Positions 1,988 to 55,051 of a stretch of 57,300 nt of DNA are shown here, in pieces; position 1 is the stretch's first letter; each line of letters starts with the position of its first letter. The stretch comes from Candidatus Pacebacteria bacterium GW2011_GWA1_46_10. Its GTDB lineage: Bacteria; Patescibacteriota; Microgenomatia; UBA1400; PJMF01. Both the position numbers and the translations under genes were made by a program. The notes beneath the pieces were generated by a model that worked only from the letters and a program-made list of their open reading frames with translations, made no database searches and had not been told where the DNA came from. The stretch spans positions 107,198-164,497 of the forward strand of contig LCLP01000003.1 of the NCBI GenBank assembly GCA_001002135.1, given 5' to 3'.

Positions 1988-2026
1988 GATTTAATTACAC
2001 CAAAATATATCAATCACTGACTAATT

Positions 2027-2605
2027 TCAACTTGTAGATACAAAATCTTCCTCCACCCACCCACTTTTACCTTTTCTAAACATATACGCCAACCCGTTGG
2101 GTAATTCATATCCAATGTGTCCTTTGGCTGGTGGAGTTTTTCGTAAGTGATGCAACAAAATTCTCAACACCCCTCCATGACAAACAATTAAAATGTGCTG
2201 ATTTTTGTGGGTTTTTAAAGTGCTCGTAAAAGTACCTATCACTCGAGAAACAAAATCCGTAGGTGGCTCAGTATACATGTCTATCGTCTCGTGACGGGCT
2301 GCCAGTTCCTTTTGCACTGCCGGCCACAATCTTCCCTCAAAAATGCCGTAGGACTGCTCGTTAAAACCAGGCTCTTTTTCAACCGGCACCCCTAGTCTTT
2401 TGCCAACAATTGCCGCGGTTTGATACGCCCTTTTAAGATTTGAAGCGATGATTGTATCAAGCGAAAAACGCGAAAGATTCTCTGCTAATAATTTTGCTTG
2501 CTCGATCCCAACACTCGATAAAGGAATATCTCTTGCCCCTTGTAATCTTTGTTCTTTATTCCAAGTAGTTTCCCCGTGTCGAGCGAGGAAGAGCATTTGA
2601 GACAT
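2027..2605 (-). CDS. Histidine phosphatase family protein
   Basis: RHGET catalytic motif, SNLKRAYQTA and C-terminal VCHGG. Confidence 0.9.
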   Translation of the reverse strand: MSQMLFLARHGETTWNKEQRLQGARDIPLSSVGIEQAKLLAENLSRFSLDTIIASNLKRAYQTAAIVGKRLGVPVEKEPGFNEQSYGIFEGRLWPAVQKELAARHETIDMYTEPPTDFVSRVIGTFTSTLKTHKNQHILIVCHGGVLRILLHHLRKTPPAKGHIGYELPNGLAYMFRKGKSGWVEEDFVSTS

Positions 2606-2674
2606 AACCGAATTGTACCAAAAGAGAGCTCCCCTTAGTAGACATTGTTGGAACCTACTTTTTCAAACAATCGC

Positions 2675-4576
2675 TTACAAATTGCTCTCTTTACTAAAGA
2701 TGTCATCACTATTCAACTGATTCCCCCCAATTCTTATCAAAATATTATTAGCAACAGTTAATTGATCTTCTGCGGGTAAGAAAGGAAGAAGTGTGAAATA
2801 TAACTCACTTTCATTATAAAAAGTATCGCCGTATTTTTCATTCAATATACCAATTAGTCTGTCGGTGTTTTTAGTCAAATATATTTCTTTTAATTCATCC
2901 TCACCTATATCATCCACTATTTTTTCAATTATTTTCACAAGAACTGGATAACCAAGTTGTGTACTTATATTAAGTTCTTGCTTTATTGCCTTTCTAGCAA
3001 AGTATTCAGTTAAACCTTCCTCAAAAAACCCTGGCAAGACAGTTTCTTCGGAAACATAACTCGTATAGTGGAAGTATTCATGTACCAAAGTTGATAAATA
3101 ATCAGCTAATGTATTACTGCTTGTATAGTCCAAGGCTATTTTGATTATTTGATCTTCTGGCTGAAAAATACCAAGTTCATAGACAGTTTGCCCTTTTTGG
3201 GTTTCAATAAGTGTTACATAATATTCAAGATCTTCGTTTATTTGGTTCCATTCTGACGCTTCTGCCTGTGCTTGCCCAAGAATTGCTTGCCATTCTGAAA
3301 TTTCGTTTTGATATCCAATTACGATTGAATCCCACTGTCCTCTTACATTTTCACACTCTTGATCTGAATAGTATCTGTGAAATCCAGGTTCATAGTAATA
3401 AGTATAGTAGCCTGCACTTTTGCAATAATCATAATCAGCTTGTTGTTTATTTCTTGAATCCTGAACATACTGCTCTCCCAAGGTAATATTTTGTTTTGCT
3501 TGCGAAATTACCCCGTATATTCTATTTACCTCATTAGTTATTTCTGTTTGGAGATCTCTAACCTCTTTAATTTGTTCATTAAACATCGTCTCTCTATAAC
3601 TCAGGTATTCTTGTCTTCCTAATACTTCTATTTTTGGTTCACTCTTAACATATCTGTCTTCTAGATAATTTTTAACGTAAAGTTTGCCTAAAACTGGGCT
3701 AATTTTTTCTATCTCATCCTCATTTATTTTTCTAAAAACTAAACTATTCTTTACTATGACTAAATCAGAATTATTTTTAACAGTAGTAAAAACAAAATTC
3801 TCTGGTATTAAATTCAATACATTATTATTAAAGAATAAATTTTCAGAACTGTTGATTCCTTCATAGGCATCAACAATAGTTTTGCTAAAGTTCTCTTCAC
3901 CATTTCGAATCGTTGGCAAATTATTACTATCTTTTAAATAATTAACTACCTCATCTGCTCCCCATTTCACCTCAGAGGAATTATTAACCTTTATTGGTGC
4001 CCAATTTACTTGAACTAATCCAAATATCAAAGTAATTAACGGTGACAACACCCAAGCAGTTAATAATGTTAAACCCGTAAAACTAATTGCTTTTCTTATA
4101 TTTTGCTGTTTTCTATAAAGAATAAATACAAGAGCTCCTGATAATAATATTAAGACCAGCAAAATGTCTAATCTGTTAAAGAATGTGAAAAAAGTCGACT
4201 TAAAATAAGCTATAAAAATGTTATTTTCACTGCTGGCTTCTAATATTCTTAATGAAACAAATGTGAAAAAAACAGTAAATAATCCTACATAAATTAAAAA
4301 TATTTTATTATTTAACAATAATCTAAAATCAATATTTTTCACACCTTTCTTAATAGATAAATTTTTTAAATCAGGGAATTTTATTTTTGGCCTAGCTATT
4401 TTTTTATATGAAAGATCATATAAGTATCTATCAACAAAAATTGAAATGATTAAAACAACGCCAATTAATAGAAAAAAAGTGTCTTTGTAAAAGAAAGATA
4501 ACAAGAAAAATATAATTGAAATAATTATTGCAAGAGGATTTAGATTCTTCTTAATTTTCTTCTGTTTTTTTAACAT
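2675..4576 (-). CDS. Membrane protein with C-terminal gluzincin-like metallopeptidase motif
   Basis: Several hydrophobic helices, a coiled-coil-like middle and HEYFH...EEGLTE; AT-rich DNA. Confidence 0.7.
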   Translation of the reverse strand: MLKKQKKIKKNLNPLAIIISIIFFLLSFFYKDTFFLLIGVVLIISIFVDRYLYDLSYKKIARPKIKFPDLKNLSIKKGVKNIDFRLLLNNKIFLIYVGLFTVFFTFVSLRILEASSENNIFIAYFKSTFFTFFNRLDILLVLILLSGALVFILYRKQQNIRKAISFTGLTLLTAWVLSPLITLIFGLVQVNWAPIKVNNSSEVKWGADEVVNYLKDSNNLPTIRNGEENFSKTIVDAYEGINSSENLFFNNNVLNLIPENFVFTTVKNNSDLVIVKNSLVFRKINEDEIEKISPVLGKLYVKNYLEDRYVKSEPKIEVLGRQEYLSYRETMFNEQIKEVRDLQTEITNEVNRIYGVISQAKQNITLGEQYVQDSRNKQQADYDYCKSAGYYTYYYEPGFHRYYSDQECENVRGQWDSIVIGYQNEISEWQAILGQAQAEASEWNQINEDLEYYVTLIETQKGQTVYELGIFQPEDQIIKIALDYTSSNTLADYLSTLVHEYFHYTSYVSEETVLPGFFEEGLTEYFARKAIKQELNISTQLGYPVLVKIIEKIVDDIGEDELKEIYLTKNTDRLIGILNEKYGDTFYNESELYFTLLPFLPAEDQLTVANNILIRIGGNQLNSDDIFSKESNL

Positions 4577-5798
4577 AAAAACTGAAATTTAATGTTTCAT
4601 CAGTATTAGAGTTGCATTCAAATCTTATTTCACTATCATTATTAGAAAATTTTATCTCTTCAAAATCTGTTTTATTTTTAACTGAGTCAAACGAAGGAGG
4701 AACTTTATCCAACTCATTAAGGAAGTCAGCCAGATTGTTTTGGTCTGGATATTCATCTTTATACGAAGAATAAATATTTGTTTTGTACCAAATCAAATTA
4801 CATACCATTGCTCTGGTTTCCCAAGAAGTAATATGCGGAAGAATTGGATATCGTCCCAAATCATTGTCTGAAAAACTATAAAGCTTATTCAATTTATTAA
4901 TATTAATGTTAGCAATCTCGCTCTGAAGTCTGTCATGCTCCTCAAATAATTCGTCCATCACCCTATCCCAATCTAAATTGAAATCAGCTTCTTGTCTGGC
5001 AATAGCCTCATATTTATATGATGCAGAATCATAATCACCGACTGCTAAATCTTTGAGCATTAAATAAGTATCTCCAAATAATTTTTTCTGCTTAGCTAAC
5101 GTTTCTGAAAAGTAACTATAATTTTGTTCTATTACATCTTGACCATCAAAAACAAAATCACTCCTAGTATATTTTTCCAACGGAGAAACCATATTAAAAT
5201 TCTGAGAAATCAAATCTTCACTCTCACCGATATAATTGTCAACGAACTCGTTTAAGATCGCTCTGTCTTTAAAAATTAATGATAGATTTTTAATAACATC
5301 ACTTTCTATTAATGACCTATTAGAAGCATTAAGCTCCGCATCGTAGTATTGAAAGGCTAGATCAACATATTCATCAATAAATTTTCCGTTTTTTGTTATA
5401 AAAAATTTACTAAATGTGTCTATGTTTTGAAAATTTTGACGATTTTCCTGTAAAATGGCTATATATTCTCTCGCCCTTTGGTCATTAATCTTAACTTCAT
5501 TTGAAACCAGGTTGTATTCGATAACCATTTCAGCAGATGAGGAGCTTTCAAGATGTGAAAAATAGTCGCCGATTAAATTATTAATAGTGTCATTTTCATC
5601 CTGTGCATTATTGGCAAAAGAAATTTCTTCTAATTCTACTTCTTTTTGTAGTTCATTTAGCCTGGTGAGTTGATGCCACTCAACAATTCTATATGCAAAA
5701 AATAGAATTATTAAAAAACCCAAGAAAGGGAGAATGCCATGATCGTAATTCTTAACACTATTTTTTATATTTGAAAAGACTTTTTTAATATTTTTCAT
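4551..5798 (-). CDS. Hypothetical membrane-anchored protein
   Basis: 415 aa, single N-terminal TM helix, AT-rich; overlaps the next gene's start. Confidence 0.7.
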   Translation of the reverse strand: MKNIKKVFSNIKNSVKNYDHGILPFLGFLIILFFAYRIVEWHQLTRLNELQKEVELEEISFANNAQDENDTINNLIGDYFSHLESSSSAEMVIEYNLVSNEVKINDQRAREYIAILQENRQNFQNIDTFSKFFITKNGKFIDEYVDLAFQYYDAELNASNRSLIESDVIKNLSLIFKDRAILNEFVDNYIGESEDLISQNFNMVSPLEKYTRSDFVFDGQDVIEQNYSYFSETLAKQKKLFGDTYLMLKDLAVGDYDSASYKYEAIARQEADFNLDWDRVMDELFEEHDRLQSEIANININKLNKLYSFSDNDLGRYPILPHITSWETRAMVCNLIWYKTNIYSSYKDEYPDQNNLADFLNELDKVPPSFDSVKNKTDFEEIKFSNNDSEIRFECNSNTDETLNFSFYVKKTEEN

Positions 5799-5976
5799 CT
5801 TAAATTTATCTAGCTATTCTAACATATTATTGATATTTAGGGCTTTTCTTTATTTGTTCAACAAAGATATTAAATAACAACTCCGCAGTTTCAATGTCTT
5901 TGATTAATTCATCATCCGATATATTTTCAACATCTTTGTCTAAAATTATTTTCGCAGTGTTTAAATCCATGATTGA

Positions 5977-6387
5977 TTATTTTTTATTTTTAAACCACTG
6001 ATAGCCACCATATCCAACTCCTCCCAAAGCAAGTAGTCTCATGAGCCAATCATCATCCGAAGAATTGTTGGTTTGTTGTGTAATATCAGTTGAAGAACTT
6101 CTTTTTGGAACTGAGCTTGGAATTGAAGTGGGTTTAGGGGTGGAAGTTGGCTTAAGAGTGGGCTTGGGTGCTGAAGTGACTACTGGAAGCGGAATGGTTT
6201 CTACAACACCTCCACCATGACAATGCCTTGCTCCTTCAACCTCTCCCCACTTCGCACAATTAGTACGACAATAATGGCAACCGTCTGAAGCAGTATTGCC
6301 AGGATGAGCAAAAACTTTTGATATCGAGAAAACAGTAAGTAATGAACAAATAGATAAACCAAATAAAAATGACTTCACAAAACTCAT
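5977..6387 (-). CDS. Secreted YHYH-like domain protein with Pro/Thr linker and C-terminal anchor
   Basis: Signal peptide, HPGNTASDGCHYCRTNC...HCH, P/T/S linker, TM helix and KNKK tail. Confidence 0.65.
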   Translation of the reverse strand: MSFVKSFLFGLSICSLLTVFSISKVFAHPGNTASDGCHYCRTNCAKWGEVEGARHCHGGGVVETIPLPVVTSAPKPTLKPTSTPKPTSIPSSVPKRSSSTDITQQTNNSSDDDWLMRLLALGGVGYGGYQWFKNKK

Positions 6388-6565: not shown

Positions 6566-7954
6566 ATGCTTAACCCCGCCCTAAAAAAAACCTGGTTAAA
6601 AGACCGTGAAGCACTGCAAAAAACCGCCGTGCCGATCGTGACCATCTCTGGCACCTATCGGGAAGACCTCAAGGGAGTCCATGATTTGCCAGAAGAGGAC
6701 CTCACCCAAGACGTGGTTTTTTCCCGCGCTCACTACTCCATGGCCATTGGGGTAGCTGTCCAGGCCTGGGGTAAAACCATTGATCCCCAAAAAGCTTGGC
6801 TCATTGACCCCACCAACTATGTGACCGGCGAGAGCTGGGCCAGTGTGATGATCACCGAGAAACTGGGCAAACTGGTAGCTCGCCACTTTGCCCTGAAAAT
6901 CCTCAAAAACTTAGTGGACAAATTCGGCCGGCGAAAAATCCCCCTACTAATGAGCGTTACCCCACCGTTACTGCGACTGGCACGAGGAGTAAACTCCCCC
7001 ATTTTGTCTTTCCATATCACGGCCGGCAACATCCTGCTGGAACATGGCAAAGCCGTTGTCGAGATGGTCACCGATCCTCACGTGCGCGGCGATTACCTGG
7101 CCAACTGTGACAACCCCCAGGCTTACTACTTGGTGTTTGACGAGCGAACCAAAGTCGAGTTTTTGGAAAAGGCTCATAAAATCGATAAAAAAATTGATAG
7201 TGAGCGCATTTTTGTTACCGGCCCCCCGATCGACCCCAGAATCATCGCTGCCAGGAAAAACAAGCACGTCTGGACTGAAAAAAGGCCACTGCGCATCTGC
7301 TTGACCACCGGGGGCCTGGGCACCAACAAACAAGAGATTCACACCATCATTGACCAACTCGTCCCCACCCTGCGCGCGAGAAAACCCAAGGTAGAGTTGA
7401 TGGTCTATGCCGGCACTCATGCTGATATTAAAAACACTGTCATTGCTAAAGCCAGAAAAGAAGGCGTACCCTACCAGGAAATTAATCCACCGGACCCGGC
7501 TCAGTTTGAGATCGGTCAAAAATTAAGCGTAGAGGAATTCAAGGCCGATCACCTTTCAACAGCCTTGACCATCATCTACCACCCCCAAATTATTGACGCC
7601 AATGAACTGCTCATCCACTACGCCTTCCCTTGGGCCGACGGCTTCATCACCAAGCCCTCCGGCGACATGGCTTATGACGCCGTTGCCAGCGGCGCTTTTC
7701 TCTTAACTCTCAAAGAATGGGGTGAGTGGGAAACCAATATTTTTGCCAAGTTCAAAACTCACGAGATAGCTAAAACTGCTGAAACCCAAAACATTATTCG
7801 TCAACTCGAGCAACTCACTCAAATTGAAAACGACACTTGTTGGATTAGCGATGCCATGCACCGAGCCAGAGCCATCGAGCATGAGGATCCGTTTTTTCTC
7901 CAGGGAGCAAAAAATATTTTGCAAGCGTATAAGAAAATAGCGGCAAGTTTATAG
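6566..7954 (+). CDS. GT-B glycosyltransferase, MGDG synthase/UgtP-like
   Basis: FVTGPPID, TTGGLG and ITKPSG motifs; start moved to ATG 6566 because the longer ORF overlaps tRNA-Trp. Confidence 0.65.
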   Translation: MLNPALKKTWLKDREALQKTAVPIVTISGTYREDLKGVHDLPEEDLTQDVVFSRAHYSMAIGVAVQAWGKTIDPQKAWLIDPTNYVTGESWASVMITEKLGKLVARHFALKILKNLVDKFGRRKIPLLMSVTPPLLRLARGVNSPILSFHITAGNILLEHGKAVVEMVTDPHVRGDYLANCDNPQAYYLVFDERTKVEFLEKAHKIDKKIDSERIFVTGPPIDPRIIAARKNKHVWTEKRPLRICLTTGGLGTNKQEIHTIIDQLVPTLRARKPKVELMVYAGTHADIKNTVIAKARKEGVPYQEINPPDPAQFEIGQKLSVEEFKADHLSTALTIIYHPQIIDANELLIHYAFPWADGFITKPSGDMAYDAVASGAFLLTLKEWGEWETNIFAKFKTHEIAKTAETQNIIRQLEQLTQIENDTCWISDAMHRARAIEHEDPFFLQGAKNILQAYKKIAASL

Positions 7955-7994
7955 TTCATAGTTAACAGAATCTATAAACTATGAACTATTAACT
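7946..7994. repeat. Heptamer-periodic inverted repeat (REP-like), copy 1
   Basis: Perfect 13-bp arms ATAGTTCATAGTT/AACTATGAACTAT around an AGAATCT core, between convergent genes. Confidence 0.8.
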
Positions 7995-8002
7995 CATTTA
8001 AC

Positions 8003-8206
8003 TTACTTCAACTTCTTCATCACTTTGTGAATTTGGTGCTGTTTGCAGATTTTGCAGTATTTTTTAATCGGGAAAGTACTTTCACCCGTCGTCTGTTTCT
8101 TGAGCTGTTCTTGAACTTTGTTGTACTCGGTCACATAGCCAAAGTGCTTACACACTGTGCACTGCAGCCCGACAATTTGACGTGGTCCTTTTTTCTTTTT
8201 GGCCAT
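8003..8206 (-). CDS. rpmG: 50S ribosomal protein L33 (Zn-ribbon form)
   Basis: MAKKKKGPRQIVGLQC..C...Y.T..N...KKYC..C..H..H; start at ATG 8206. Confidence 0.92.
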   Translation of the reverse strand: MAKKKKGPRQIVGLQCTVCKHFGYVTEYNKVQEQLKKQTTGESTFPIKKYCKICKQHQIHKVMKKLK

Positions 8207-8248
8207 TTTTACTTTCCAGAATTTCAGTATTGTATCACACGTGACAGG

Positions 8249-8322
8249 AGCCACCTCTGGGATTCGGACCCAGGACCTACGGTTTACAAAACCGTCGCTC
8301 TAACCAACTGAGCTAAGGTGGC
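8249..8322 (-). tRNA. tRNA-Thr (TGT)
   Basis: Cloverleaf with loop TT-TGT-AA; T-loop reads TCCGAAT (C at position 55). Confidence 0.88.
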
Positions 8323-8350
8323 TTTTTGGCCGCGACTACTCACACGAGTG

Positions 8351-8433
8351 TGCCAGGAGCAGGGTTCGAACCTACGAAGGCGAATGCCAGCAGTTTTACA
8401 GACTGCCCCGTTTGACCACTTCGGTATCCTGGC
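8351..8433 (-). tRNA. tRNA-Tyr (GTA)
   Basis: Cloverleaf with long variable arm and loop CT-GTA-AA. Confidence 0.95.
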
Positions 8434-8478
8434 TTACTTGATCGCGCTACTCACTCAAGGATGAGCCCACGACCAATG

Positions 8479-8551
8479 AGCCTTTGTCGGGAATTGAACC
8501 CGAGACCTCGTTCTTACCAAGAACGCGCTCTGCCAACTGAGCTACAAAGGC
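8479..8551 (-). tRNA. tRNA-Thr (GGT)
   Basis: Cloverleaf with loop TT-GGT-AA and T-loop TTCAATT; TATAAT about 15 nt upstream. Confidence 0.95.
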
Positions 8552-8617
8552 ATTACAGTTCAGATATTATACCGTTGTCTTTGCTCAAAACCAGATTATG
8601 AATAAATAAAAGACCCA

Positions 8618-9367
8618 TTAAAGGTGGCGTCTTGAAAGCAGGGTGGGTTCGTCAGGAGAACCAATCTCTTCCATCTCAAGCTCTCCTCGAAGTTGAGCTA
8701 GCCGAGGTAAAAGCATTCTGTTCCACAAGGCATTAATGCCCTCTCCAAGGTTGGAAATCTGTTCATGAGTTGCCGTCGGAATCAAGTCAAACACACTTTC
8801 GATAGCTTTATCTTCAGTCCCAAATTGGTTTTTCCCTTGATTGTCGTACATACGGATCTTGTATTTAATAATCGCAATTTGACCGATTTGAATCAAGGAA
8901 AGCCCCATCATTTTGGCTAAGGAACGAATCAGTTTTTCATAGATCACTGCAGCGTCAGGGTCAGTCTTTTGGAGGTGAAAAAGGTTATAAAAAATATCAG
9001 ATACCTCAGAATAAAGAGTGGGGAGAGTGTGATTTTCTTTCCCCTCTAAATAACCAGATATTTCTGGCATCACTTCAAAAACCTCCGGAACTTTGAAATA
9101 TGGAGCTGGCTTTGTTCTTACTGGAGTTTGATCGAGATTCCTGGTGCGACGCAGGTCATTGGTTACATTATCCCCAATCATGAAATAGATTTTAGTTTCT
9201 TTTCGAACTGGTTGACCACCGCGATAAGTTTCATCTTCCTTTGCTAATAAAAGCTCGTTGATAACGAAAATAACTTTCTCTTCTGTATCAATGAGTTGCA
9301 CAATTTCCCGAGGAGACAAAGAACTGAGGTGTTCGTGAGTCAACTGAGGTTCTTTTTCTGTCATCAC
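8618..9367 (-). CDS. Hypothetical protein, possible all-alpha NTP pyrophosphohydrolase-like motif
   Basis: 249 aa; SEVSDIFYNL weakly resembles the MazG/HisE EExxDxxY helix. Confidence 0.55.
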   Translation of the reverse strand: MMTEKEPQLTHEHLSSLSPREIVQLIDTEEKVIFVINELLLAKEDETYRGGQPVRKETKIYFMIGDNVTNDLRRTRNLDQTPVRTKPAPYFKVPEVFEVMPEISGYLEGKENHTLPTLYSEVSDIFYNLFHLQKTDPDAAVIYEKLIRSLAKMMGLSLIQIGQIAIIKYKIRMYDNQGKNQFGTEDKAIESVFDLIPTATHEQISNLGEGINALWNRMLLPRLAQLRGELEMEEIGSPDEPTLLSRRHL

Positions 9368-35692: not shown

Positions 35693-38101
35693 CTACCTAC
35701 TCAATATTTCTACCACGCCCTCGTTTGCGTTTACTCTCAATTTCTGTCCTGTTTTAATCAGCTTTGTGGCCAAACCAGTACCGATGATGCAGGGTATGCC
35801 CAACTCTCTTGAAACAATGGCAGAGTGAGATGCCATACCGCCCTCATCAGTCACAATTGCCGAAGCTTTTTTAATGGCTGGCATCAGGTGAGGTAAGGTT
35901 TGGCCAACTACAAGAATAGAGCCTTTTGGCATCTTATCCATATCTTCATTTAAGTTTGGCGAATTCCAGCGAAGAATGAAAGCTTTTCCTGTCACTAACC
36001 CCACTTGAGCTACTTGTCCTGACAACTCTTTTACGTTTTTGGGCAGAGGCGGCACATTTTTTTCCGCCAATTTTCTGCCAGCAGGACCAGTAATTATCGA
36101 GGTTCGACCGTCATCATGTCGGTAAAAAAGAAACCGACTTCTCTGTTCTAACTCTTTGAGATCAACTTGTTTGCTCGTCAAAAATTGCAGCAGTTCCACA
36201 AAGGTTAACTGCATACTTAAATGAGTTGGCAACCCATAACGCTTTTCGAGTGTAGGGAATAAAGCACTCAAAAACCAAAAATACAGTGGCATCCAACCCT
36301 GAAGTCTCAATTCAAATCGGTTATAACCGACATCAGCAATAATGTTTCCTATTTTTACAGCTTGGCTTGATATTTTTAATTTTCGAGCCAAGCGGCGCTT
36401 TTCTGCAGCCACCGATAGCCAATATTTTTTCTTCTTTTTGAACTCTTGTGCGGCTTCCTGCTTATTTCTCTTTTTGAACAATTTTTGATAATATTCCAGA
36501 TCAAATTTTGCCGAACCAGCTGTGCCAATAATGCCATACATATCTGCGTGTTTTTGCAGTAAAGGAATCGCCTCTTTCTCAGTCACATTCATTGAACACA
36601 ACCCCAGCCAATCAAGCTGCTCTCTTTCAATAGTCGTCATTTGAGTCGGCCGATTTAGCTCAGCCACTATTTTAGGAATTTCTAGAGAAGAAATGTTTCC
36701 CTGTAATTCCATTTGCAACGTATTTTCCAAATCTGCCGTGCACTGAGGCTGACACATCGTAAAGTAGGCAAATAATTCAGCCAGCAAATCTCCTGCCTTC
36801 TGAGTAGCTGTATACAATTCGTCACGAGAAAAATTCTGCAAAGTAGAAAATGAATGCTTCTTAACAAAAGAGCCTGCAGATTGATAGCTTTTTTTACTTC
36901 GAGCAAAGTATTCTTTGCACCAAGCAGGATTAAGAAAGTCTTTCTTACCCCATTTAGCAGCCTGTTTCATTTCCTCTCGACTGTAATACATAGCGCATTG
37001 CGTTTTCTCCGAAGTCAGAAACCAGTTTTTTTCTGAAAAAGAAGAAAATTCCTTGCGGAACCTCAAGCTTTCCACCACAGCGACACTGACGCCAAAAGCA
37101 CCGAAACCAGCTGTCTCCCACATTTGTTTGTAAGTGTGTTTTGGGGGCTCTAGGACCTCTTTTTGTATGCCTGTGATTGGCCGAGACTGCAAAATATAAA
37201 TCTTGCCTTTCGCTACCGCCCATTCAATATCACAAGGATGGCCAAAGTGCTTTTCTACGAGGATCATTTGCTTCGCCAGTTCTTTGATTAACTGGTCACT
37301 TAATTTCTGTTTCGATCCTTGTTTTTGAGTCAGCGTCTGCTTAACCACACCCACACTTCCCCGTTTGAGAAGAAATGCCTGATGAGAAATTGTTTTGTCT
37401 AGAATTTCAAAGCTATATTTGTCGACCACATAGTTGTCAGGAGTAATTTGACCTGAAACTAAGCTCTCGCCTAATCCCAATCCCGCTTCAATGACGAGCT
37501 GTTCCGCATCATGAGTGACTGGGTTGAGAGTAAAACCGACTCCCGCCACTTCACTGGGAATCATGGTCTGCACAATTACAGCCATACCAATATTTTTAGG
37601 GTTAATTTTTTGTTCTTTTTGGTAAACGAGCGCTCTGGGATTGAAACGTGACGCCCAGCACCTCTGGATATCTTTTCCAATTGTTTTGGATGAGCGATGA
37701 AGAAAAGTATCAAATTCTCCCGCCCAGCTTGCTTCCTGGGCGTCTTCCACTATGCCCGAAGAACGGACGGCAAAGGTGTTACCAGGAAGACGAGACGCAC
37801 TTTCTTTTACTTGGGTTACTATCGATTGGGGTATCGTCTTGCTGAGGATCAGCTGTTTGATTTTTTGGGCTGATTTTCCAACGGAAACTGAGGATGAATG
37901 GTCGATTGAGCTGAGAATTTTAATAACTTCAGGTCTTATTTTTGCCGATTCGAGAAAAAGGTTGAAAGCTTCAGTCGTAACTACAAAACCAGGAGACGTG
38001 CGCACTCCGCTGCCCAACAATTTTCCGAGCTGACTTGCCTTGCCACCAACTGATAATGTCGTTTGATTTTTCAATCGATTCAGAGGCAAAACAAATTGCA
38101 T
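35693..38101 (-). CDS. PEP-utilizing enzyme: ATP-grasp, central domain and phospho-His swivel domain (PPS/RPH-like)
   Basis: VGGKA..L, AVRSS..ED...S.AG, DIEWA...YILQSRPIT and TDEGG..SHSAIVSRELGIPCIIG. Confidence 0.88.
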   Translation of the reverse strand: MQFVLPLNRLKNQTTLSVGGKASQLGKLLGSGVRTSPGFVVTTEAFNLFLESAKIRPEVIKILSSIDHSSSVSVGKSAQKIKQLILSKTIPQSIVTQVKESASRLPGNTFAVRSSGIVEDAQEASWAGEFDTFLHRSSKTIGKDIQRCWASRFNPRALVYQKEQKINPKNIGMAVIVQTMIPSEVAGVGFTLNPVTHDAEQLVIEAGLGLGESLVSGQITPDNYVVDKYSFEILDKTISHQAFLLKRGSVGVVKQTLTQKQGSKQKLSDQLIKELAKQMILVEKHFGHPCDIEWAVAKGKIYILQSRPITGIQKEVLEPPKHTYKQMWETAGFGAFGVSVAVVESLRFRKEFSSFSEKNWFLTSEKTQCAMYYSREEMKQAAKWGKKDFLNPAWCKEYFARSKKSYQSAGSFVKKHSFSTLQNFSRDELYTATQKAGDLLAELFAYFTMCQPQCTADLENTLQMELQGNISSLEIPKIVAELNRPTQMTTIEREQLDWLGLCSMNVTEKEAIPLLQKHADMYGIIGTAGSAKFDLEYYQKLFKKRNKQEAAQEFKKKKKYWLSVAAEKRRLARKLKISSQAVKIGNIIADVGYNRFELRLQGWMPLYFWFLSALFPTLEKRYGLPTHLSMQLTFVELLQFLTSKQVDLKELEQRSRFLFYRHDDGRTSIITGPAGRKLAEKNVPPLPKNVKELSGQVAQVGLVTGKAFILRWNSPNLNEDMDKMPKGSILVVGQTLPHLMPAIKKASAIVTDEGGMASHSAIVSRELGIPCIIGTGLATKLIKTGQKLRVNANEGVVEILSR

Positions 38102-38280: not shown

Positions 38281-38631
38281 TTAGGTCAGTTGGGAAAGAC
38301 CACTCTTCATCGCTTCAATCTGTTTTTTTGTTTCAGGCAGATGCTCCGACACAATTGTCCAGATTTCCTCTAAATTCACCTCGTCGTACTCGTGAGTAAT
38401 GATATTGCGCAAACCAATAATACTTTTCCAAGGAATGCTGTCATTCTGAGCGCGAATATCTTCTGGTAATTTTTTAGCTGCTTCAGCAATTATTTCCAGT
38501 CGGCGCAAAATTTTATCCTGTTCTTCAAAACTATTTTCAAATTGAGAAAAAGACAAACCGTCAATATATTGTTCTATCAAATCAATGGAAAATAGAATGT
38601 CATTGATATAAATTTCCGGATCTTTCTGCAT
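38281..38631 (-). CDS. HepT-like ribonuclease toxin (DUF86/HEPN)
   Basis: LEIIAEA, IPW..I.GLRNIITHEY (R-x4-H) and W.IV. Confidence 0.9.
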   Translation of the reverse strand: MQKDPEIYINDILFSIDLIEQYIDGLSFSQFENSFEEQDKILRRLEIIAEAAKKLPEDIRAQNDSIPWKSIIGLRNIITHEYDEVNLEEIWTIVSEHLPETKKQIEAMKSGLSQLT

Positions 38632-38632
38632 G

Positions 38633-38926
38633 TTAGTAAATCGGCATTTGGGTCGGTAAAATGTACGATTTTAAACTCGGTTTAATGAGTTTGTACTCCA
38701 CCACATCGACATCTCTACCAAGGGATTTCTTCAGCTCGTCCTCCAAATCTAACTTGAGAGCAATATAGTCAAAACCGTGTACATCGTTGGGCAGTTCAAC
38801 CAAAAAATCAACGTCGCTTTCAGCCGTCATTTCTCCTTGAACAGCAGAACCAAACACAGCGGCCCTAGACACGCGGTGTTTTTTCAGCACAGGCAAAGCT
38901 TGCTGTTTGATAGTTTGTAAATCCAT
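38633..38926 (-). CDS. Minimal nucleotidyltransferase antitoxin (MNT)
   Basis: FGS...G.....SDVDFLV and LGRDVDVV; 1 nt from the HEPN gene. Confidence 0.9.
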   Translation of the reverse strand: MDLQTIKQQALPVLKKHRVSRAAVFGSAVQGEMTAESDVDFLVELPNDVHGFDYIALKLDLEDELKKSLGRDVDVVEYKLIKPSLKSYILPTQMPIY

Positions 38927-39094: not shown

Positions 39095-40483
39095 ATGGAC
39101 AGAAAAGAGCGACTTAATAAGACTCCAGAAGAACTCAGTCAACTTGAACGCACGCTTGGTATTCCCCCATTATCAGAAGCTCGTGAGGCAGTTATTCAAA
39201 CTCTGTTTGTAAAAGGACACACATTACCTGGTGTCGACCTTAGCGCTCCTAAAATCATGCAATTCATGGAAGAATTAGGACCGATAGTTGGCATGAATAC
39301 CTTTTATGGTCCAGTTGTCAAAACCCCAGACTCATATGATGAAGAAACAAAACAGCGGTTGGGTGGACGGCCGCCAGAAGACATCAATTCTATCCTAATG
39401 TGGGATGACTCTGGGAGCCAAATGTATATTTTCCCCAATCAAGACAACTGGTTCACCATTTCTGTTTATGCCTGCAAAACCTTTAATGAACAGGCTGTGC
39501 TCAAATACATTTACGACAAACTTAATCTTCGTGAGGATCTGCAATTTGCTAGCCAAAATCAGTCTGGCAACGAACAGCCTGGGTGGCTAAGTTACGCTGA
39601 AACACAAGAACAAACACTTACTCCAGAAAAAAGTGTTTATGAACCATTGGCCCAGGTTTTGAATGTTGAGAGAACAAACCTGCCGGCAGTCATACAAGCC
39701 GGACAGGACATTGAAAGAATTGTTTTTCAAGCCAATCGTGAGGGCTGGGGAGATCGTTTAGGAGCGATGTTCACTCCAGAGTATGCTCAACGATTTCAAG
39801 CTATACACAGCCAATTCGAAATCGCCACAGATCGACAATTCGCTGATGACGTACTGGCCGGAAAAATCACTAACCCTGATGAATATCCATTCCAAAAAAC
39901 GTACGATCGATTAGCGCACATGGAAGCCCAAGCAGCCGAAATGCAACCCGGAAATCAGGTCGTCCACATCGGCACTGGTCACTTTCCAGGCACAGCCTAC
40001 GGATTATTGAAACTAGGTATTCCCGTGGTATGCGTTGAAATGGATTCAGCCGTCGCAAAAACCTCTGCCGAGGTATTGCAACGTCTTAATCTCCTTGGAA
40101 ATGAGAAACTAATGGTCGTTCCCATCGACGGTTCTCAACTCGACACCTCTCAATTCACCAATGTAATTATTTCCGCCATGGTCACCACGGAGGACAAAAT
40201 ACGCATTTTACAAATTCTCGAGGATCTTACAGTAGACGAAAAACAGGTTGTTTTGCGAACAACTGCCGGCGCCAGAAAACTCATTTACCCACCTCTCCCC
40301 AGGGAAGTAACAACCAATATCCGGGGAACACTAATCGCCAAAACCCGGCCTGGAACAGAAGATCCCATAGAATCTCTTGTGTACCGTTTACGACCTTCAG
40401 CCGAAATTGGTAGAGGATTAGATCGAATTTTATTCGAAACTAAAAGAAAGCTTAAGGCCCCCCAACCTCTTACTGTAGAGTAA
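39095..40483 (+). CDS. Fusion of an AdoMet decarboxylase-like domain and a nicotianamine synthase-like SAM-dependent domain
   Basis: N-terminal MWDDSGSQMYIFP...ISVYACK; C-terminal YPF..TY..L..ME, HIGTGHFPGT, ISAMV...K..IL and LRT..GARKLIYP. Confidence 0.7.
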   Translation: MDRKERLNKTPEELSQLERTLGIPPLSEAREAVIQTLFVKGHTLPGVDLSAPKIMQFMEELGPIVGMNTFYGPVVKTPDSYDEETKQRLGGRPPEDINSILMWDDSGSQMYIFPNQDNWFTISVYACKTFNEQAVLKYIYDKLNLREDLQFASQNQSGNEQPGWLSYAETQEQTLTPEKSVYEPLAQVLNVERTNLPAVIQAGQDIERIVFQANREGWGDRLGAMFTPEYAQRFQAIHSQFEIATDRQFADDVLAGKITNPDEYPFQKTYDRLAHMEAQAAEMQPGNQVVHIGTGHFPGTAYGLLKLGIPVVCVEMDSAVAKTSAEVLQRLNLLGNEKLMVVPIDGSQLDTSQFTNVIISAMVTTEDKIRILQILEDLTVDEKQVVLRTTAGARKLIYPPLPREVTTNIRGTLIAKTRPGTEDPIESLVYRLRPSAEIGRGLDRILFETKRKLKAPQPLTVE

Positions 40484-40484
40484 A

Positions 40485-40916
40485 TTAACTAAAAAGAGAA
40501 AACTTCTTCGTCAGCTGTTTAGCCAGGTAGTCTTCAGCAAAAAAGCAAATGCCAAAGTACTCCAGATCAACTTCCTTCGTTTTATTGGTCCTTTGATGTT
40601 GCTCAAAATACGTTCCTTCAACCATAGTATTGATGAAATCAGTAAAAGGAATATTTTTTTCTATCAATTCTTCCTTCAAAGTACGAAGCTTATTGCTGTT
40701 TTTGGCGCTTAAAACAATAAATGGATTATCGGAAATGTTTTTGTGAGCGTTTCCATCAGCGTCCACATAATCTCGAAATCTAAAATCGTCATTCTTGCCA
40801 ATAAGACCCACTAGTCCGGCGGCCATGTGGCCAAGAGCATTAAGCGCTCTCCCATTCTCTATTTTTTTGCTTAAAACACAAACAAATCTGTGAGTAGTAA
40901 CGCCATCGCCTTGCAT
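40485..40916 (-). CDS. DUF2000 family protein (Pth2-like fold)
   Basis: VLS..I..GRALNALGHMAAGL, Y.DADG..H..IS..PFIVL and LEYFGI. Confidence 0.75.
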   Translation of the reverse strand: MQGDGVTTHRFVCVLSKKIENGRALNALGHMAAGLVGLIGKNDDFRFRDYVDADGNAHKNISDNPFIVLSAKNSNKLRTLKEELIEKNIPFTDFINTMVEGTYFEQHQRTNKTKEVDLEYFGICFFAEDYLAKQLTKKFSLFS

Positions 40917-40998: not shown

Positions 40999-41409
40999 AT
41001 GGAACAGGAGATCAGAAAAAATCCCGACCACTACTCAATAATTTTTTTAGGGCCAAGTGGCGAGGTTGGTGGTAGGTCAATGGTTGGCAATACTCTGGAA
41101 GAAGCTAGAGAGGTTGGTGGGGGGTTTAACACATTTTGGGGAGTTTCGCGTCACCCCACAGAAGATAAATTTATCGTCGGGCCTAACGAACACAAAGTTC
41201 ATATGTATGTGATGGTTGACGAATCTTTATTTTTCCCAAGTACTCTTGTGGGCCTTCCTAGGGTTAACAAGCGTGGAGAATTAGTTGGGGTGAGAAATGA
41301 TGGACGCGAAGGTTGGAAACCATCTGAAATCGATGAGCTAATCCAAAAAAAAGGAACTATCGTCATCAACCAAGTTGGTAATCATTCGACCCAGTTACTG
41401 AAACCCTAA
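40999..41409 (+). CDS. Hypothetical protein
   Basis: 136 aa ATG ORF with no recognised motif. Confidence 0.6.
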   Translation: MEQEIRKNPDHYSIIFLGPSGEVGGRSMVGNTLEEAREVGGGFNTFWGVSRHPTEDKFIVGPNEHKVHMYVMVDESLFFPSTLVGLPRVNKRGELVGVRNDGREGWKPSEIDELIQKKGTIVINQVGNHSTQLLKP

Positions 41410-52039: not shown

Positions 52040-55000
52040 ATGCCACGGCAGCCTGCCCGCTCCACCCTCTCCGCCCGCGAAAACACTGCCTTTTCCACAA
52101 GTCAGTCGTTCAATACGCCAAACACCCAAACTAAACCCATTAATTTCGAGAAACTGCTGGAGAAATACCTTAACAGCTTAGCGGCTAACGGGACGGCCGA
52201 CGCCACCATCAGAAATTATCGCAGTGATATTGCCCAATTTCTCTCGAGTGTACCGGATCAAAACTCCCTCAACTCTGGTGAACTACGAAAACAGCTTGTG
52301 GAAAAATTTCTCCTTTCCCAGAGAGAAAAAGGCCTCAGTGCAGCCACAGTGCGCCGGAAATTAATCAGCACCACCCAATTCCTGCAGTGGGCTGCCCAAA
52401 CCAGTACCCCTCCTGCTCGGGCGACCACTCGATCAATCACTCAGCCAACTACTCAACTGACTACTCAACCGACCGCCTTACCTCAGAGTAGCCCTCTCCC
52501 CACCGTTCCGGCCGGAAAGCCAGCAGAAGTCTATCTCATTCCTCTGGCCATTGAAAAAGTTCTCAACCAATACCTGACTACGCTCAAATACAACTCGGCT
52601 TCTGACGCCACCATCAGAAACTACCGCAGTGACATCAAGCAGTTTGCTGCCTTCATCAGGGAAAAAACCATCGACACACTGCTGGTCCTCAATAACCTCA
52701 AGCGGTTCGCCCTCTCCCAGAAAGAAAAAGGACTCAAGGCGACCTCAGTTCAACGAAAGTTGACCAGTATCACCCAATTCGCCCTCTGGGCACAACGGCG
52801 TAAATTGATCCCGACCGCCAGCAGCGACTGGTCATCGACTGCCTTAGACAGTGTTTTTTTCCCTACCTCAGACAGCCCGATTGTGGTGACCGCTCCCACT
52901 CCAGACGAAACAGTAAAACTGGGCAAACGGAAACGGCTGAAAGAAGGCTGGTTGGCCGGCTTAGTGCTTTTGCTGTTGTTGTTTGGCAGTTCGATCGGTC
53001 TCTACCTAGTCCAAACAGTCCAAGAGCTGCGGCGTCAGGCCGCGGAGACCACTGAAGTCCCGACGACCGCTGCTCAGCAAATTGACTACTCCACCCTCAC
53101 TCAAGTACTCGAGGGAAATCACGCCATTCCATTTAGCGGCAAACTGTATAAAGACACCGGCGAACAAGTAACAGGTACCACGGTGGCATTTTTTAGTCTG
53201 TTGGACGGACCGTCTGATGAGGCCGAGGTCGTTTGGGAATCAGGCGCTTGTCAAGTCAAGACCGATTCTCAGGGTATTTTCAATATTAACCTGGGTGGAG
53301 GCACCGGTAGTGGGACTGACAATAGTGAGTGTGGACCCCCACTCTCCAATGACGTCTACTACGGCGAGAGTAACCTCTGGTTATTGCCAACGATCGGCGG
53401 TCAACAACTGGCTCTTTACCCAGTTAAAACGGTTTCTTACTCCGAAGACTCACAGCTACTGGACGGCGCACCACTTGGCAACCCGGTCATCAATGAGTCG
53501 GTGCTCTACATGAATGACCAGGGTGAAGTGCTATTTGCTGACGAACCAACTTTCAATGTGCCAGCGGGAAATCTCACTTTGGCTGGCGAAAATCTGTATT
53601 TTGTGACTGAAGGTAGGGGCGATATTTTGGCAGACAGCAGAATCATCGCTCCGAGTGCCATTTTTGGCGGTGGTGAACAATCACCACTCATCCTACTTCA
53701 GGGCGAAGAGAGCACTGCCCCGCTGTTGGACCTGCGCGATAGCCAAGGTCAACAGTTAGGGGTGATCGATATCCAGGGTCGACTGGGGCTGGGCACCACC
53801 ACCCCGCAAGGACTAATCGGACTGGGAGGTAACGGCGCCTATATCAGCGCCGATAATAACAACCTGGTTTTTTATGATACTGCCACCGGCACCGTCAAAA
53901 CTCTCTCCGACTTAGCGGCCGGCGGCGTGGACACCAACTTCTGGTCTCAATCCGGCACCTCGATTTACTACACTGGCGGTCAAGTAGGAGTCGGCACCAG
54001 CAGTACCGAACAGACCTTAACTGTGGGCGGCAACATCCAGTTGGGCACCACAGACGCCGACCGATATATCTACTTTGACAATGGCACTAGTGCCAACAGT
54101 GGTATCCGTTATAACGCCACCAACGACAAAATCCAGTTTAGCCATGATGGCTCAACTTGGAGTGATTTGGGTACGACTGGGGTTACTTCGGTCACTAACT
54201 CCGACGGTACGCTGACCATCTCGCCCACCACCGGCGCAGTCGTGGCCTCACTCAATCTCGGCCACGCTAATACCTGGACAGCCACCCAAACTTTCGCCGG
54301 TCTGACCGCTTCCGGGACCGTCACTTTCTCAGGTCTGAGCGCTGGTGTCGACAACACAGTCCTCGTCCTCAACTCAAGTAACCAACTGGTGACCGATGAA
54401 ATTGATAGTCGGGTTTGGGGAACTACCCTCGTTGACGGAACTGGGACCGCTGATTATGTAGCCTACTGGTCTGATACTGATACGCTGGCCGCGGAACAGT
54501 ACTTGGCCACTGCCCGAGGTGGCCTGGGTGGGAATGTGACGGCCCTTGGGGCTGGAGAGGTGTTGTACTCGACCGGCACTACTGCCTATGACTCACTGGC
54601 AGCTGGTTCTAGTGGGCAACTCTTAACTTCTGGTGGGGCAGCTGCTCCTTCTTGGAGTAACATCGCCTCCCTGCTGACTGCTGGTGATGACATTGTCTTC
54701 ATTGAAGACGGCGGCGATGTGGGAGTAGGCACTAACGCACCTGAACAAGACCTGACCGTGGCCAGCAACATTCAACTGGGAGTGACTGACGGAGACAGAT
54801 ATATCTACTTTGATAACGGCACACTCAGTAACGCTGGTTTTCGCTATAACGCCACCGGCGATCAAATGGAGTTTAGTAACGATGGTACCACCTGGACAGC
54901 TTTCAGCGACCTGACTTCCGGCCTGGTTACCTCAGTCAGCAACTCTGATGGCACCTTGACGATCTCACCCACCACCGGGGATGTAGTAGCTTCACTCAAT

Positions 55001-55051
55001 CTCAGTAACGCTAATACTTGGTTGGCGCTACAAACCTTCAACATGACCTAG
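52040..55051 (+). CDS. Giant repeat surface protein, fragment 1: two integrase core-binding (SAM-like) domains, TM helix and extracellular repeats
   Basis: Two copies of (A/S).ATIRNYRSDI.QF...K.L...(T/S)V.RKL.S..QF..WA, then a TM helix at about aa 305-325 and GxVGVGT repeats. Confidence 0.8.
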   Translation: MPRQPARSTLSARENTAFSTSQSFNTPNTQTKPINFEKLLEKYLNSLAANGTADATIRNYRSDIAQFLSSVPDQNSLNSGELRKQLVEKFLLSQREKGLSAATVRRKLISTTQFLQWAAQTSTPPARATTRSITQPTTQLTTQPTALPQSSPLPTVPAGKPAEVYLIPLAIEKVLNQYLTTLKYNSASDATIRNYRSDIKQFAAFIREKTIDTLLVLNNLKRFALSQKEKGLKATSVQRKLTSITQFALWAQRRKLIPTASSDWSSTALDSVFFPTSDSPIVVTAPTPDETVKLGKRKRLKEGWLAGLVLLLLLFGSSIGLYLVQTVQELRRQAAETTEVPTTAAQQIDYSTLTQVLEGNHAIPFSGKLYKDTGEQVTGTTVAFFSLLDGPSDEAEVVWESGACQVKTDSQGIFNINLGGGTGSGTDNSECGPPLSNDVYYGESNLWLLPTIGGQQLALYPVKTVSYSEDSQLLDGAPLGNPVINESVLYMNDQGEVLFADEPTFNVPAGNLTLAGENLYFVTEGRGDILADSRIIAPSAIFGGGEQSPLILLQGEESTAPLLDLRDSQGQQLGVIDIQGRLGLGTTTPQGLIGLGGNGAYISADNNNLVFYDTATGTVKTLSDLAAGGVDTNFWSQSGTSIYYTGGQVGVGTSSTEQTLTVGGNIQLGTTDADRYIYFDNGTSANSGIRYNATNDKIQFSHDGSTWSDLGTTGVTSVTNSDGTLTISPTTGAVVASLNLGHANTWTATQTFAGLTASGTVTFSGLSAGVDNTVLVLNSSNQLVTDEIDSRVWGTTLVDGTGTADYVAYWSDTDTLAAEQYLATARGGLGGNVTALGAGEVLYSTGTTAYDSLAAGSSGQLLTSGGAAAPSWSNIASLLTAGDDIVFIEDGGDVGVGTNAPEQDLTVASNIQLGVTDGDRYIYFDNGTLSNAGFRYNATGDQMEFSNDGTTWTAFSDLTSGLVTSVSNSDGTLTISPTTGDVVASLNLSNANTWLALQTFNMT

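Follow-up and report, generated by a model that had tools for sequence, protein, structure and literature searches.

A SpeD-fold domain fused to a nicotianamine synthase-like module in Candidatus Pacebacteria: a candidate bifunctional enzyme for polyamine-like or chelator-like products

Introduction

To the best of our knowledge, polyamine biosynthesis is considered well mapped, and every polyamine aminopropylation known to us relies either on decarboxylated S-adenosylmethionine (dcSAM) and a SpeE-type synthase or on aspartate semialdehyde together with a dehydrogenase and a decarboxylase of carboxy-polyamines. Here we describe a gene of 462 codons (39095..40483, + strand) in a 57,300-nucleotide stretch of contig LCLP01000003.1 of Candidatus Pacebacteria bacterium GW2011_GWA1_46_10, which is referred to below as the window. 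The encoded protein joins an N-terminal domain with the fold of class 1b S-adenosylmethionine decarboxylases (AdoMetDCs) to a C-terminal module that resembles nicotianamine synthase (NAS) and CntL, and conservation of both putative active sites suggests a bifunctional enzyme that would build a polyamine-like or chelator-like molecule from S-adenosylmethionine (SAM).

The active sites of class 1b AdoMetDCs are built at the interface of the dimer. Neither processing nor catalysis of the T. maritima AdoMetDC can do without S63, H68 and C83 (Li et al., PMC10407285), and the catalytic/processing His five residues past the Ser is kept in all functional SpeD, SpeDA and SpeDC proteins (PMC10407285 Fig. 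S5). Substrate shifts are documented for SpeD homologues: SpeDC and SpeDA are neofunctionalised ornithine and arginine decarboxylases, which are also found in bacteria of the candidate phyla radiation (CPR), like the fusion family described here, and a Pro after an aromatic residue marks bona fide AdoMetDCs as against the arginine decarboxylases (PMC10407285). A review treats NAS, MtNAS, CntL and MccD as mutual homologues (PMC10491745). In MtNAS, Y107 and E81 deprotonate the acceptor amine (PMC10491745), and mutagenesis of the plant counterparts in AtNAS1 (E73, E77 and Y106), of which E73 and E77 form an essential pair, bears this out (PMC10248798). Methylthioadenosine (MTA) is a strong inhibitor of NAS enzymes (PMC10248798).

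Decarboxylation and aminoalkyl transfer are already combined in several known systems. Microcin C is aminopropylated through transfer of a 3-amino-3-carboxypropyl (ACP) group by MccD, which is followed by decarboxylation by MccE (PMC10491745). This is net aminopropylation without dcSAM, like the chemistry that we propose below, but it uses two separate proteins and a peptide-nucleotide phosphoramidate acceptor, unlike the single-chain fusion. The MccE decarboxylase depends on pyridoxal phosphate (PLP) and has no pyruvoyl group. Human spermine synthase (3C6K) likewise carries an AdoMetDC-fold domain ahead of a Rossmann aminoalkyl transferase; that domain is non-catalytic and serves dimerisation, whereas the N-terminal domain of the fusion keeps an invariant catalytic Ser and Cys. 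An earlier note on this DNA, made from the sequence alone, did not recognise the fusion as a described enzyme, and we found no description of a SpeD-like/NAS-like domain pairing in the literature searched, nor any report of a decarboxylase-fold domain at the N-terminus of a NAS-like protein.

Results

The fusion ORF (open reading frame) is a real, conserved gene, which runs from ATG to stop and has 11 full-length homologues at 40-62% identity in a 5.8-billion-sequence collection. AlphaFold2 (AF2) gave a predicted local distance difference test (pLDDT) score of 86.7 and a predicted template modelling (pTM) score of 0.78 for the whole protein, and a pLDDT of 83.4 for the N-terminal domain (N-domain) modelled alone. 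The earlier note had proposed an AdoMetDC-like N-terminus of ~145 residues, an extent that is close enough, although the AdoMetDC-like core is better placed at residues ~33-157 (39191..39565, + strand), behind an N-terminal tail that is variable and of low confidence in the models. By AF2, Foldseek, hhalign and profile search, this core has the predicted class 1b AdoMetDC (SpeD/SpeH) fold and falls in a divergent 'Tyr-type' subgroup, with a family-specific insertion of 11 residues (residues 77-87) before the cleavage strand. When the N-domain model was compared with the PDB using Foldseek, the top five matches were all class 1b AdoMetDCs (1vr7/1tmi/1tlu/2iii) of T. maritima and Aquifex, with E values of 3e-6 to 1.4e-5, template modelling (TM) scores of 0.66-0.79 and root-mean-square deviations (rmsd) of 2.5-3.5 Å. 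In addition, hhalign aligned the N-terminal profile with canonical His-type SpeD at a probability of 99.3% (E 4.6e-20), and PF02675 was matched by seven of 12 family members (best 5.6e-6). An exhaustive profile search of 1.84 billion representatives retrieved, after the fusions, stand-alone proteins of ~120 residues that pass the PF02675 threshold. On these profile and structural comparisons, the N-domain is a genuine SpeD homologue, in agreement with the earlier proposal. It is treated here as a member of the superfamily and is not filed as an AdoMetDC, because the Tyr-type proteins lie far below the equivalog cut-off: they score 28-51 bits on PF02675 (cut-off 25 bits), i.e. inside that family, whereas on the NCBIfam AdoMetDC equivalog TIGR03330 (cut-off 75.65 bits) the stand-alone close relative P0014 reaches 20.7 bits and the Tyr-type relatives 18-40 bits.

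The predicted serinolysis site, D105/S106, lies in the motif M102-W-D-D-S106-G107 (39398..39415, + strand), with S106 as the predicted pyruvoyl precursor. In the AF2 models, S106 occupies a tight turn between strands 97-103 and 106-113, as in AdoMetDC proenzymes, and D105-S106 is aligned with the Glu-Ser cleavage site of the Aquifex AdoMetDC and of canonical SpeD. S106 aligns with S63 of T. maritima and is invariant in an alignment of 17 fusions, which includes the distant members P0016, P0018, P0045, P0051, P0058 and P0064 (22-31% identical to the window protein). In the alignments, the catalytic His of T. maritima (H68) is matched by an invariant Tyr, Y111 (39425..39427, + strand), and its catalytic Cys (C83) by an invariant Cys, C127 (39473..39475, + strand). 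The putative pyruvoyl Ser and the downstream Cys that had been picked out from the sequence thus correspond to known catalytic positions, and the Pro that marks AdoMetDCs is present in 15 of the 17 fusions. Two sequence arguments were discarded. The reading of 'W-x-E-S-G' as a signature of SpeDC ornithine decarboxylases was ruled out, since the SpeDC motif is 'QLIETS..HF' (PMC10407285 Fig. S5). The loss of Glu in 'W-P-E' was dropped as an argument against AdoMet binding; this site also varies among proteins that reach, or come close to, the NCBIfam AdoMetDC cut-off, such as P0053 ('YPKK').

The N-domain is followed by an interdomain linker (residues 158-176; 39566..39622, + strand; 18% mean identity), which ends at the conserved P177-E178, where E178 is invariant and P177 nearly so. 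The C-terminal domain (C-domain) begins with a helical N-subdomain of the NAS-like module (residues 177-280; 39623..39934, + strand), which carries E242, D246, Y270 and E277, and continues with a Rossmann-type subdomain predicted to bind SAM (residues 281-435; 39935..40399, + strand). The latter contains K368, the Gly-rich motif H291-IGTGHFPGT-300 and, where strand 2 ends, E315; its R388-TTAGARKLIY-398 corresponds to 'RTYTGMRAILY' of MtNAS. All the motifs quoted in the earlier note are present, namely the N-terminal M102-W-D-D-S106-G107 and Y125-A-C127-K and the C-terminal Y264-P-F..T-Y270..L..M-E277, H291-I-G-T-G-H-F-P-G-T300, S360-A-M-V..K368..I-L and R388-T..G-A-R-K-L-I-Y398-P. As a single sequence, the window protein exceeds the gathering threshold of Pfam NAS (PF03059; 34.1 vs 27.1 bits, residues 239-416) and matches the MtNAS crystal structure at E 6e-7. 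The profile of the 17-member family scores 2e-19 against MtNAS, 1.5e-10 against CntL and 4e-6 against the best methyltransferase, and Foldseek ranks MtNAS (2e-12, TM 0.76-0.81) and CntL (1e-9) before methyltransferases (8e-7 or weaker). The structural alignment to MtNAS and CntL extends over ~270 columns at TM 0.74-0.81 and includes the NAS-specific helical subdomain. Only two of the 12 family members reach the Pfam NAS model at E<=1, because that model is plant-biased. Spermine_synth (PF01564) was matched weakly by two of the 12 members (best E 0.16), and the PDB spermidine synthase 1mjf at E 0.19. Sequence profiles and predicted structure therefore agree that the C-domain is NAS/CntL-like and not a methyltransferase, as had been suggested from its motifs; a grouping with ordinary methyltransferases, which the earlier note had named as a refuting result, is not what these comparisons show.

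The catalytic residues of this module also appear to be kept. Y270 is aligned with Y107 of MtNAS (the counterpart of Y106 in AtNAS1) and is invariant in the 17 fusions. The HMMER alignment sets E81 of MtNAS (the counterpart of E84 in CntL and E77 in AtNAS1) opposite D246, in a weakly aligned stretch, and this site is Asp or Glu in 17/17. The invariant E242 lies four residues, i.e. one helical turn, ahead of D246, like the E73/E77 pair of AtNAS1. In total, 15 columns are invariant across the fusions (P94, S106, Y111, C127, L136, E178, E242, Y270, E277, G293, G295, T300, K368, R388 and Y398), and among them are the residues at the three catalytic positions of SpeD, the catalytic Tyr of NAS and the glycines that bind SAM. 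Among close family members, mean identity is 53% for the N-domain and 41-44% for the NAS module; the N-domain is thus the best conserved segment and fits poorly with a decayed scaffold. Such a pattern of invariance is what would be expected of two active sites under selection, and we consider it reasonably probable, on the basis of residue conservation, that both domains are catalytic and coupled.

The Ser..Tyr..Cys pattern of the N-domain is not confined to the fusions. Most of the 86 profile hits at E<=1e-3 among the 1.84 billion representatives are stand-alone SpeD-like proteins. In a motif survey of 96 retrieved proteins, both canonical 'ESHISIHTFPE' and His-keeping 'WxESGxQIHTWPEY' groups were present, and the largest group was 'WxESGxxxYxW...(Y/F)(S/T)C', with Tyr at the His position. 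At locus L010 the fusion is split into an N-domain gene (P0015, 437-892) and a separate gene for a 280-residue NAS-like protein (879-1721), which overlap by 14 nucleotides. At locus L024, a Tyr-type SpeD-like gene that stands alone (1192-1554) and a SET-domain gene (1690-2184) come after a NAS-like ORF of the fusion family, and Tyr-type SpeD-like/SET-domain fusions of 277-307 residues were also found (P0030, P0031, P0034, P0086 and P0088). We met no description of the SpeD-like/SET association in the literature, where no search was aimed at it. Another stand-alone Tyr-type protein, P0024 (123 residues), occurs on at least 24 contigs, with its gene at 5001-5372 in L016-L019, in an archaeal cluster with 4HFCP_synth (MfnB), ATP-grasp_3 (MfnD-like), Hydantoinase_A and AA_kinase genes. 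This cluster resembles that of methanofuran biosynthesis, no PLP-dependent tyrosine decarboxylase was visible in the 10-kb region, and P0024 may be a pyruvoyl replacement of MfnA, a role of which no mention was found in the literature searched. The C-terminal partner domain of P0044 was not identified by Pfam or PDB sequence search. The Tyr-type SpeD clade is a whole uncharacterised group of candidate pyruvoyl enzymes.

The fusion family is very rare but conserved in CPR bacteria. Only three loci were found among 185,579 species-representative genomes, namely in a Paceibacterota metagenome-assembled genome (MAG), a Levyibacteriota MAG and a MAG labelled Gammaproteobacteria whose contig content is CPR-like, and a scan of JGI metagenomes gave five loci. 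A search with the C-domain alignment for stand-alone NAS-like relatives, limited by its word index, returned only two already-known fusions. The CPR attribution made in the earlier note agrees with the nearest homologue, which is from a Paceibacterota MAG, with the Levyibacteriota homologues and with the gene content of the window, which is CPR-like (MreB, PEGA, MurD-like, ComEC/ComEA and aminoacyl-tRNA synthetases). The contig titled 'uncultured Gammaproteobacteria' (L006, CAYGGJ010000025.1) carries sortase, PEGA, M23 peptidase and MreB genes, and its M16 peptidase and Ndk genes match those of the window, so that it is probably a CPR contig that was mis-binned or mislabelled. In L006, the fusion has an ATP-grasp gene (7877-9052, - strand) divergent to it.

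Most fusion neighbourhoods show housekeeping synteny. Four contexts tell more, one of them being L024 (above). In L002, a family member has a SET-domain gene, a canonical SpeD-SpeE fusion and two speE genes no more than 6 kb away. The SET gene (3590-4063) stands between the two speE genes, and the two speE paralogues, which flank the SpeD-SpeE fusion, are ~31% identical to each other. The predicted cleavage site of the SpeD-SpeE fusion is T-S-H ('LLLSTSHLSVHSWPE') and not the usual E-S-H. The fusion genes of L003 and L007 are each immediately preceded, on the same strand, by an ABC-2 exporter operon. A divergent TrmB-family regulator of 273-297 residues adjoins distant fusion members in L001 (7073-7966), L011/L012 (7083-7910), L013 (7104-7925), L014 (507-1328) and L015 (5290-6174), all on the - strand; these regulators are 66-78% identical mutually, as against 19-33% for the enzymes beside them, and none is present in the window. 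No CntM-type opine dehydrogenase or metallophore gene was seen among the annotated neighbours in the window and 12 related loci.

In the window itself, the fusion gene is apparently monocistronic, since a divergent HepT/MNT pair lies immediately upstream and a convergent DUF2000 gene downstream, the stop codon of the latter being one base past that of the fusion gene. The pair, which encodes a HepT-like RNase (116 residues) and an MNT-type nucleotidyltransferase (97 residues), is a toxin-antitoxin pair at 38281-38926 (- strand), and the DUF2000 gene occupies 40485-40916 (- strand). The window holds no SAM, MTA or polyamine genes, and tblastn of the window with SpeE, SpeD-SpeE, SET, TrmB and ABC-2 queries gave no match. 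Near the fusion gene, Rfam found tRNAs only and no riboswitch, no promoter emerged from a scan, and terminator-like sites were about as frequent as expected by chance.

Several other features of the window were recorded. The gene that follows the DUF2000 gene (40999-41409, + strand) encodes a protein of 136 residues, which neither Pfam nor NCBIfam matches and which has no homologue among the related loci compared. A protein of ~750-800 residues with PPDK_N and PEP-utilizers (mobile) domains is encoded at 35693-38101 (- strand), and also in L001 (14643-16886) and L007 (11552-13792), so that it is syntenic near the fusion in three loci; a C-terminal phosphoenolpyruvate (PEP)/pyruvate-binding domain was not detected in it. 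The GC content is 0.28-0.35 at 2001-6000, compared with ~0.46 in the rest of the window, and this segment may be foreign or atypical. Finally, an ORF of 1003 residues at 52040-55051 (+ strand) matches Pfam only at N-terminal phage-integrase SAM-like domains (residues ~40-120), and its other ~880 residues have no Pfam match.

Discussion

Compared with the described systems, the fusion has several shared and several distinctive features. First, it shares with the class 1b AdoMetDCs (T. maritima 1TLU/1VR7 and Aquifex 2III) a common fold (TM 0.75-0.79, rmsd ~2.6 Å), the position of the Ser in a strand-turn-strand element and a Cys 21 residues downstream; in contrast, it reads W-D-D-S-G instead of (A/I)-E-S-H, has Tyr for His, and carries the 11-residue insertion and a NAS-like module of ~300 residues. 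Second, it shares with MtNAS (3FPE) and CntL (7C9M) the helical and Rossmann subdomains, the Gly-rich SAM motif, 'RT..G.R..(L/I)Y', the catalytic Tyr and probably the catalytic acid, but identity is ~18%, a second invariant acid (E242) is present and there are no cnt-type operon partners. Third, the SpeD-SpeE fusion of L002 (5141-6283, 380 residues), 2 kb from the family member, likewise has an AdoMetDC fold N-terminal to a SAM-family alkyl-transferase, and this shared architecture suggests coupled decarboxylation and aminoalkyl transfer. The SpeD-SpeE protein has the canonical S-H...H-S-W-P-E...C residues and a spermidine-synthase domain, whereas the fusion family combines a Tyr-type motif with a NAS fold.

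From these features, we propose that the protein may be a bifunctional small-molecule enzyme, in which two active sites would act in turn on the same amine-bearing metabolite. The NAS/CntL-like module would bind SAM, Tyr270 and the acidic pair E242/D246 would deprotonate the acceptor amine, and the ACP group would then be moved from SAM to this amine with release of MTA. The SpeD-fold module would cleave itself at D105/S106, so that S106 becomes an N-terminal pyruvoyl group on the chain that bears the NAS module. It would then decarboxylate the α-amino-acid end of the ACP adduct, C127 donating the proton and Y111 standing in for the canonical His. The net reaction would be acceptor-NH2 + SAM -> acceptor-NH-(CH2)3-NH2 + MTA + CO2, i.e. 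an aminopropylation giving a polyamine-type product without free dcSAM or a SpeE-type synthase. We infer self-cleavage, the use of SAM as donor, the nature of the acceptor and which step comes first, and consecutive action on one metabolite is suggested by the two predicted folds, the conserved catalytic residues and the fusion or adjacency of the domains. Judged from the sequence, the product is probably a polyamine-like or chelator-like molecule built from SAM.

Four considerations favour ACP transfer followed by decarboxylation. The Pro that marks AdoMetDCs is kept, microcin C is a direct chemical precedent, the SpeD-SpeE fusion is an architectural one, and the substrate shift would be the smallest, because SpeD ancestrally acts on an ACP group carried by a cationic sulfonium and the new substrate would be an ACP group on a protonated secondary amine. 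We also count in its favour that SpeD-like and NAS-like domains occur as separate genes, split in L010 and adjacent in L024. We regard net aminopropylation, whichever of SAM decarboxylation and transfer comes first, as falling only slightly short of an even chance, and the specific order of ACP transfer and then decarboxylation as possible but clearly less than even. The proposal in full, namely a dcSAM-independent route to aminopropylated amines on one polypeptide with Tyr replacing His in the pyruvoyl centre, must be called doubtful, and it is offered as a tentative one.

Several observations weigh against this proposal. The catalytic His is replaced by the invariant Y111, unlike in every validated SpeD homologue, and the protein may therefore be unable to cleave itself or may do so by a different mechanism. 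On its own, the window protein has no PF02675 or NCBIfam AdoMetDC match at E<=1, and its residues 1-235 have no Pfam, NCBIfam or PDB sequence match as a single sequence. In P0015, the N-domain protein of the split locus L010, Leu replaces the pyruvoyl-precursor Ser (MWDDLGG), and the two-gene form may be in decay or may represent a variant that does not process itself. Polyamine genes are near a family member in only one of the contexts examined (L002) and in the window there are none; moreover, the L002 genome already has a complete dcSAM route, and net aminopropylation would therefore be partly redundant there. Finally, the known NAS-like enzymes alkylate the α-amino groups of amino acids and yield chelators, not polyamines (PMC10491745).

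The earlier note had offered two mechanisms, aminopropyl transfer from dcSAM by a NAS fold and decarboxylation of the product; both are still hypotheses, and a third, in which decarboxylation comes first and furnishes the amine acceptor, has a similar likelihood. Among the alternatives to our proposal, this reversed order of the steps survives best. The N-domain would be a pyruvoyl decarboxylase that makes an amine from an amino acid, e.g. Orn, Arg, Lys, diaminobutyrate or an aromatic one, and the NAS-like domain would add to this amine one or more ACP groups from SAM, giving a carboxylated polyamine or a nicotianamine-like chelator that retains its carboxylates. This would be in line with the validated SpeD derivatives, which are amino-acid decarboxylases, including those of CPR bacteria, and with the recurrence of Tyr-type SpeD-like proteins with amine-N-modifying enzymes, both in the SET fusions and beside the SET and NAS-like genes of L024. 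For example, P0024 lies in the methanofuran-type cluster beside the MfnD-like and MfnB genes with no PLP tyrosine decarboxylase visible. In L002, such an enzyme would provide the diamine needed by the adjoining SpeE enzymes, and a chelator that is secreted could be in keeping with the ABC-2 exporter operons ahead of the fusion in L003 and L007. However, the Pro that separates AdoMetDCs from arginine decarboxylases is kept, the diagnostic residues of SpeDC are absent, no opine dehydrogenase of the CntM type or other metallophore gene is nearby, and the ABC-2 linkage is restricted to two closely syntenic loci. We consider decarboxylation of the acceptor first to be unlikely, though not far-fetched.

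Somewhat less likely still is an N-domain that merely dimerises or regulates, possibly by binding SAM or MTA, while the NAS-like domain alone makes a nicotianamine-like ACP adduct. The missing essential His, the Ser-to-Leu change in P0015 and the failure of the window protein on the curated AdoMetDC models would all suit such a role, and the N-domain of human spermine synthase is among the fold matches (rank 11, E 6e-3; also a whole-protein match). Against it, the bacterial AdoMetDC structures are far better matched than the spermine synthase domain (3e-6 vs 6e-3), and P0015 belongs to a split, possibly decaying gene. Particularly, Ser, Tyr and Cys are invariant across fusions that are 19-33% identical mutually, the N-domain is conserved above the catalytic NAS module, and the Ser..Tyr..Cys pattern defines a clade of stand-alone proteins of ~120 residues, which cannot merely dimerise a partner domain.

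It is also conceivable that the N-domain is a true AdoMetDC and that the dcSAM it forms serves a NAS fold turned aminopropyltransferase, in functional analogy to SpeD-SpeE. The same architectural logic as in SpeD-SpeE, the retained AdoMetDC Pro and the use of SAM-type cofactors by all Tyr-type SpeD-like partners (NAS-like and SET) speak for this route. However, the family members lie far under the NCBIfam AdoMetDC equivalog cut-off and the window protein has no match, the catalytic His is absent, no NAS-fold enzyme is known to use dcSAM (PMC10491745), and L002 holds a canonical SpeD as well. Moreover, R388 and K368 are kept, with R388 in the 'RTY..R..LY' motif of MtNAS, and therefore nothing suggests that a carboxylate-bearing substrate has been abandoned. 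This route is improbable. The last alternative, that the C-domain is an ordinary SAM-dependent methyltransferase whose likeness to NAS comes from the shared Rossmann fold, could draw on weak RrnaAD, CMAS and PCMT matches in family members and on the few members that reach Pfam NAS, but it is very improbable given the ranking of MtNAS and CntL before methyltransferases by family profile and Foldseek, the coverage of the NAS-specific helical subdomain, and the conserved NAS catalytic Tyr and putative catalytic acid.

In conclusion, we describe a conserved CPR gene in which a SpeD-like domain and a NAS/CntL-like module are predicted to act as one enzyme. Since both domains belong to known superfamilies, the fusion is not categorically new; what is new, as far as the literature searched goes, is the combination of domains, and the N-domain violates the published generalisation on SpeD catalytic residues. 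The gene is small, soluble-looking and apparently monocistronic. If our proposal of ACP transfer followed by decarboxylation is correct, it would bring a new chemistry into the biosynthesis of polyamines or metallophores. A NAS-fold transferase fused to a SpeD-fold decarboxylase would provide a third logic of aminopropylation, and the NAS fold would be extended from metal chelators into polyamine-type chemistry. Alternatively, the product may be a nicotianamine-like chelator of a new, decarboxylated kind, and this in organisms credited with hardly any biosynthesis. We believe that the proposed reaction, if true, would give genome-reduced CPR bacteria a new logic of polyamine biosynthesis and, at the same time, add a catalytic variant to the pyruvoyl enzymes, and this Tyr-for-His variant would be shared with the wider Tyr-type SpeD clade, including the SET fusions and the archaeal methanofuran-type cluster.

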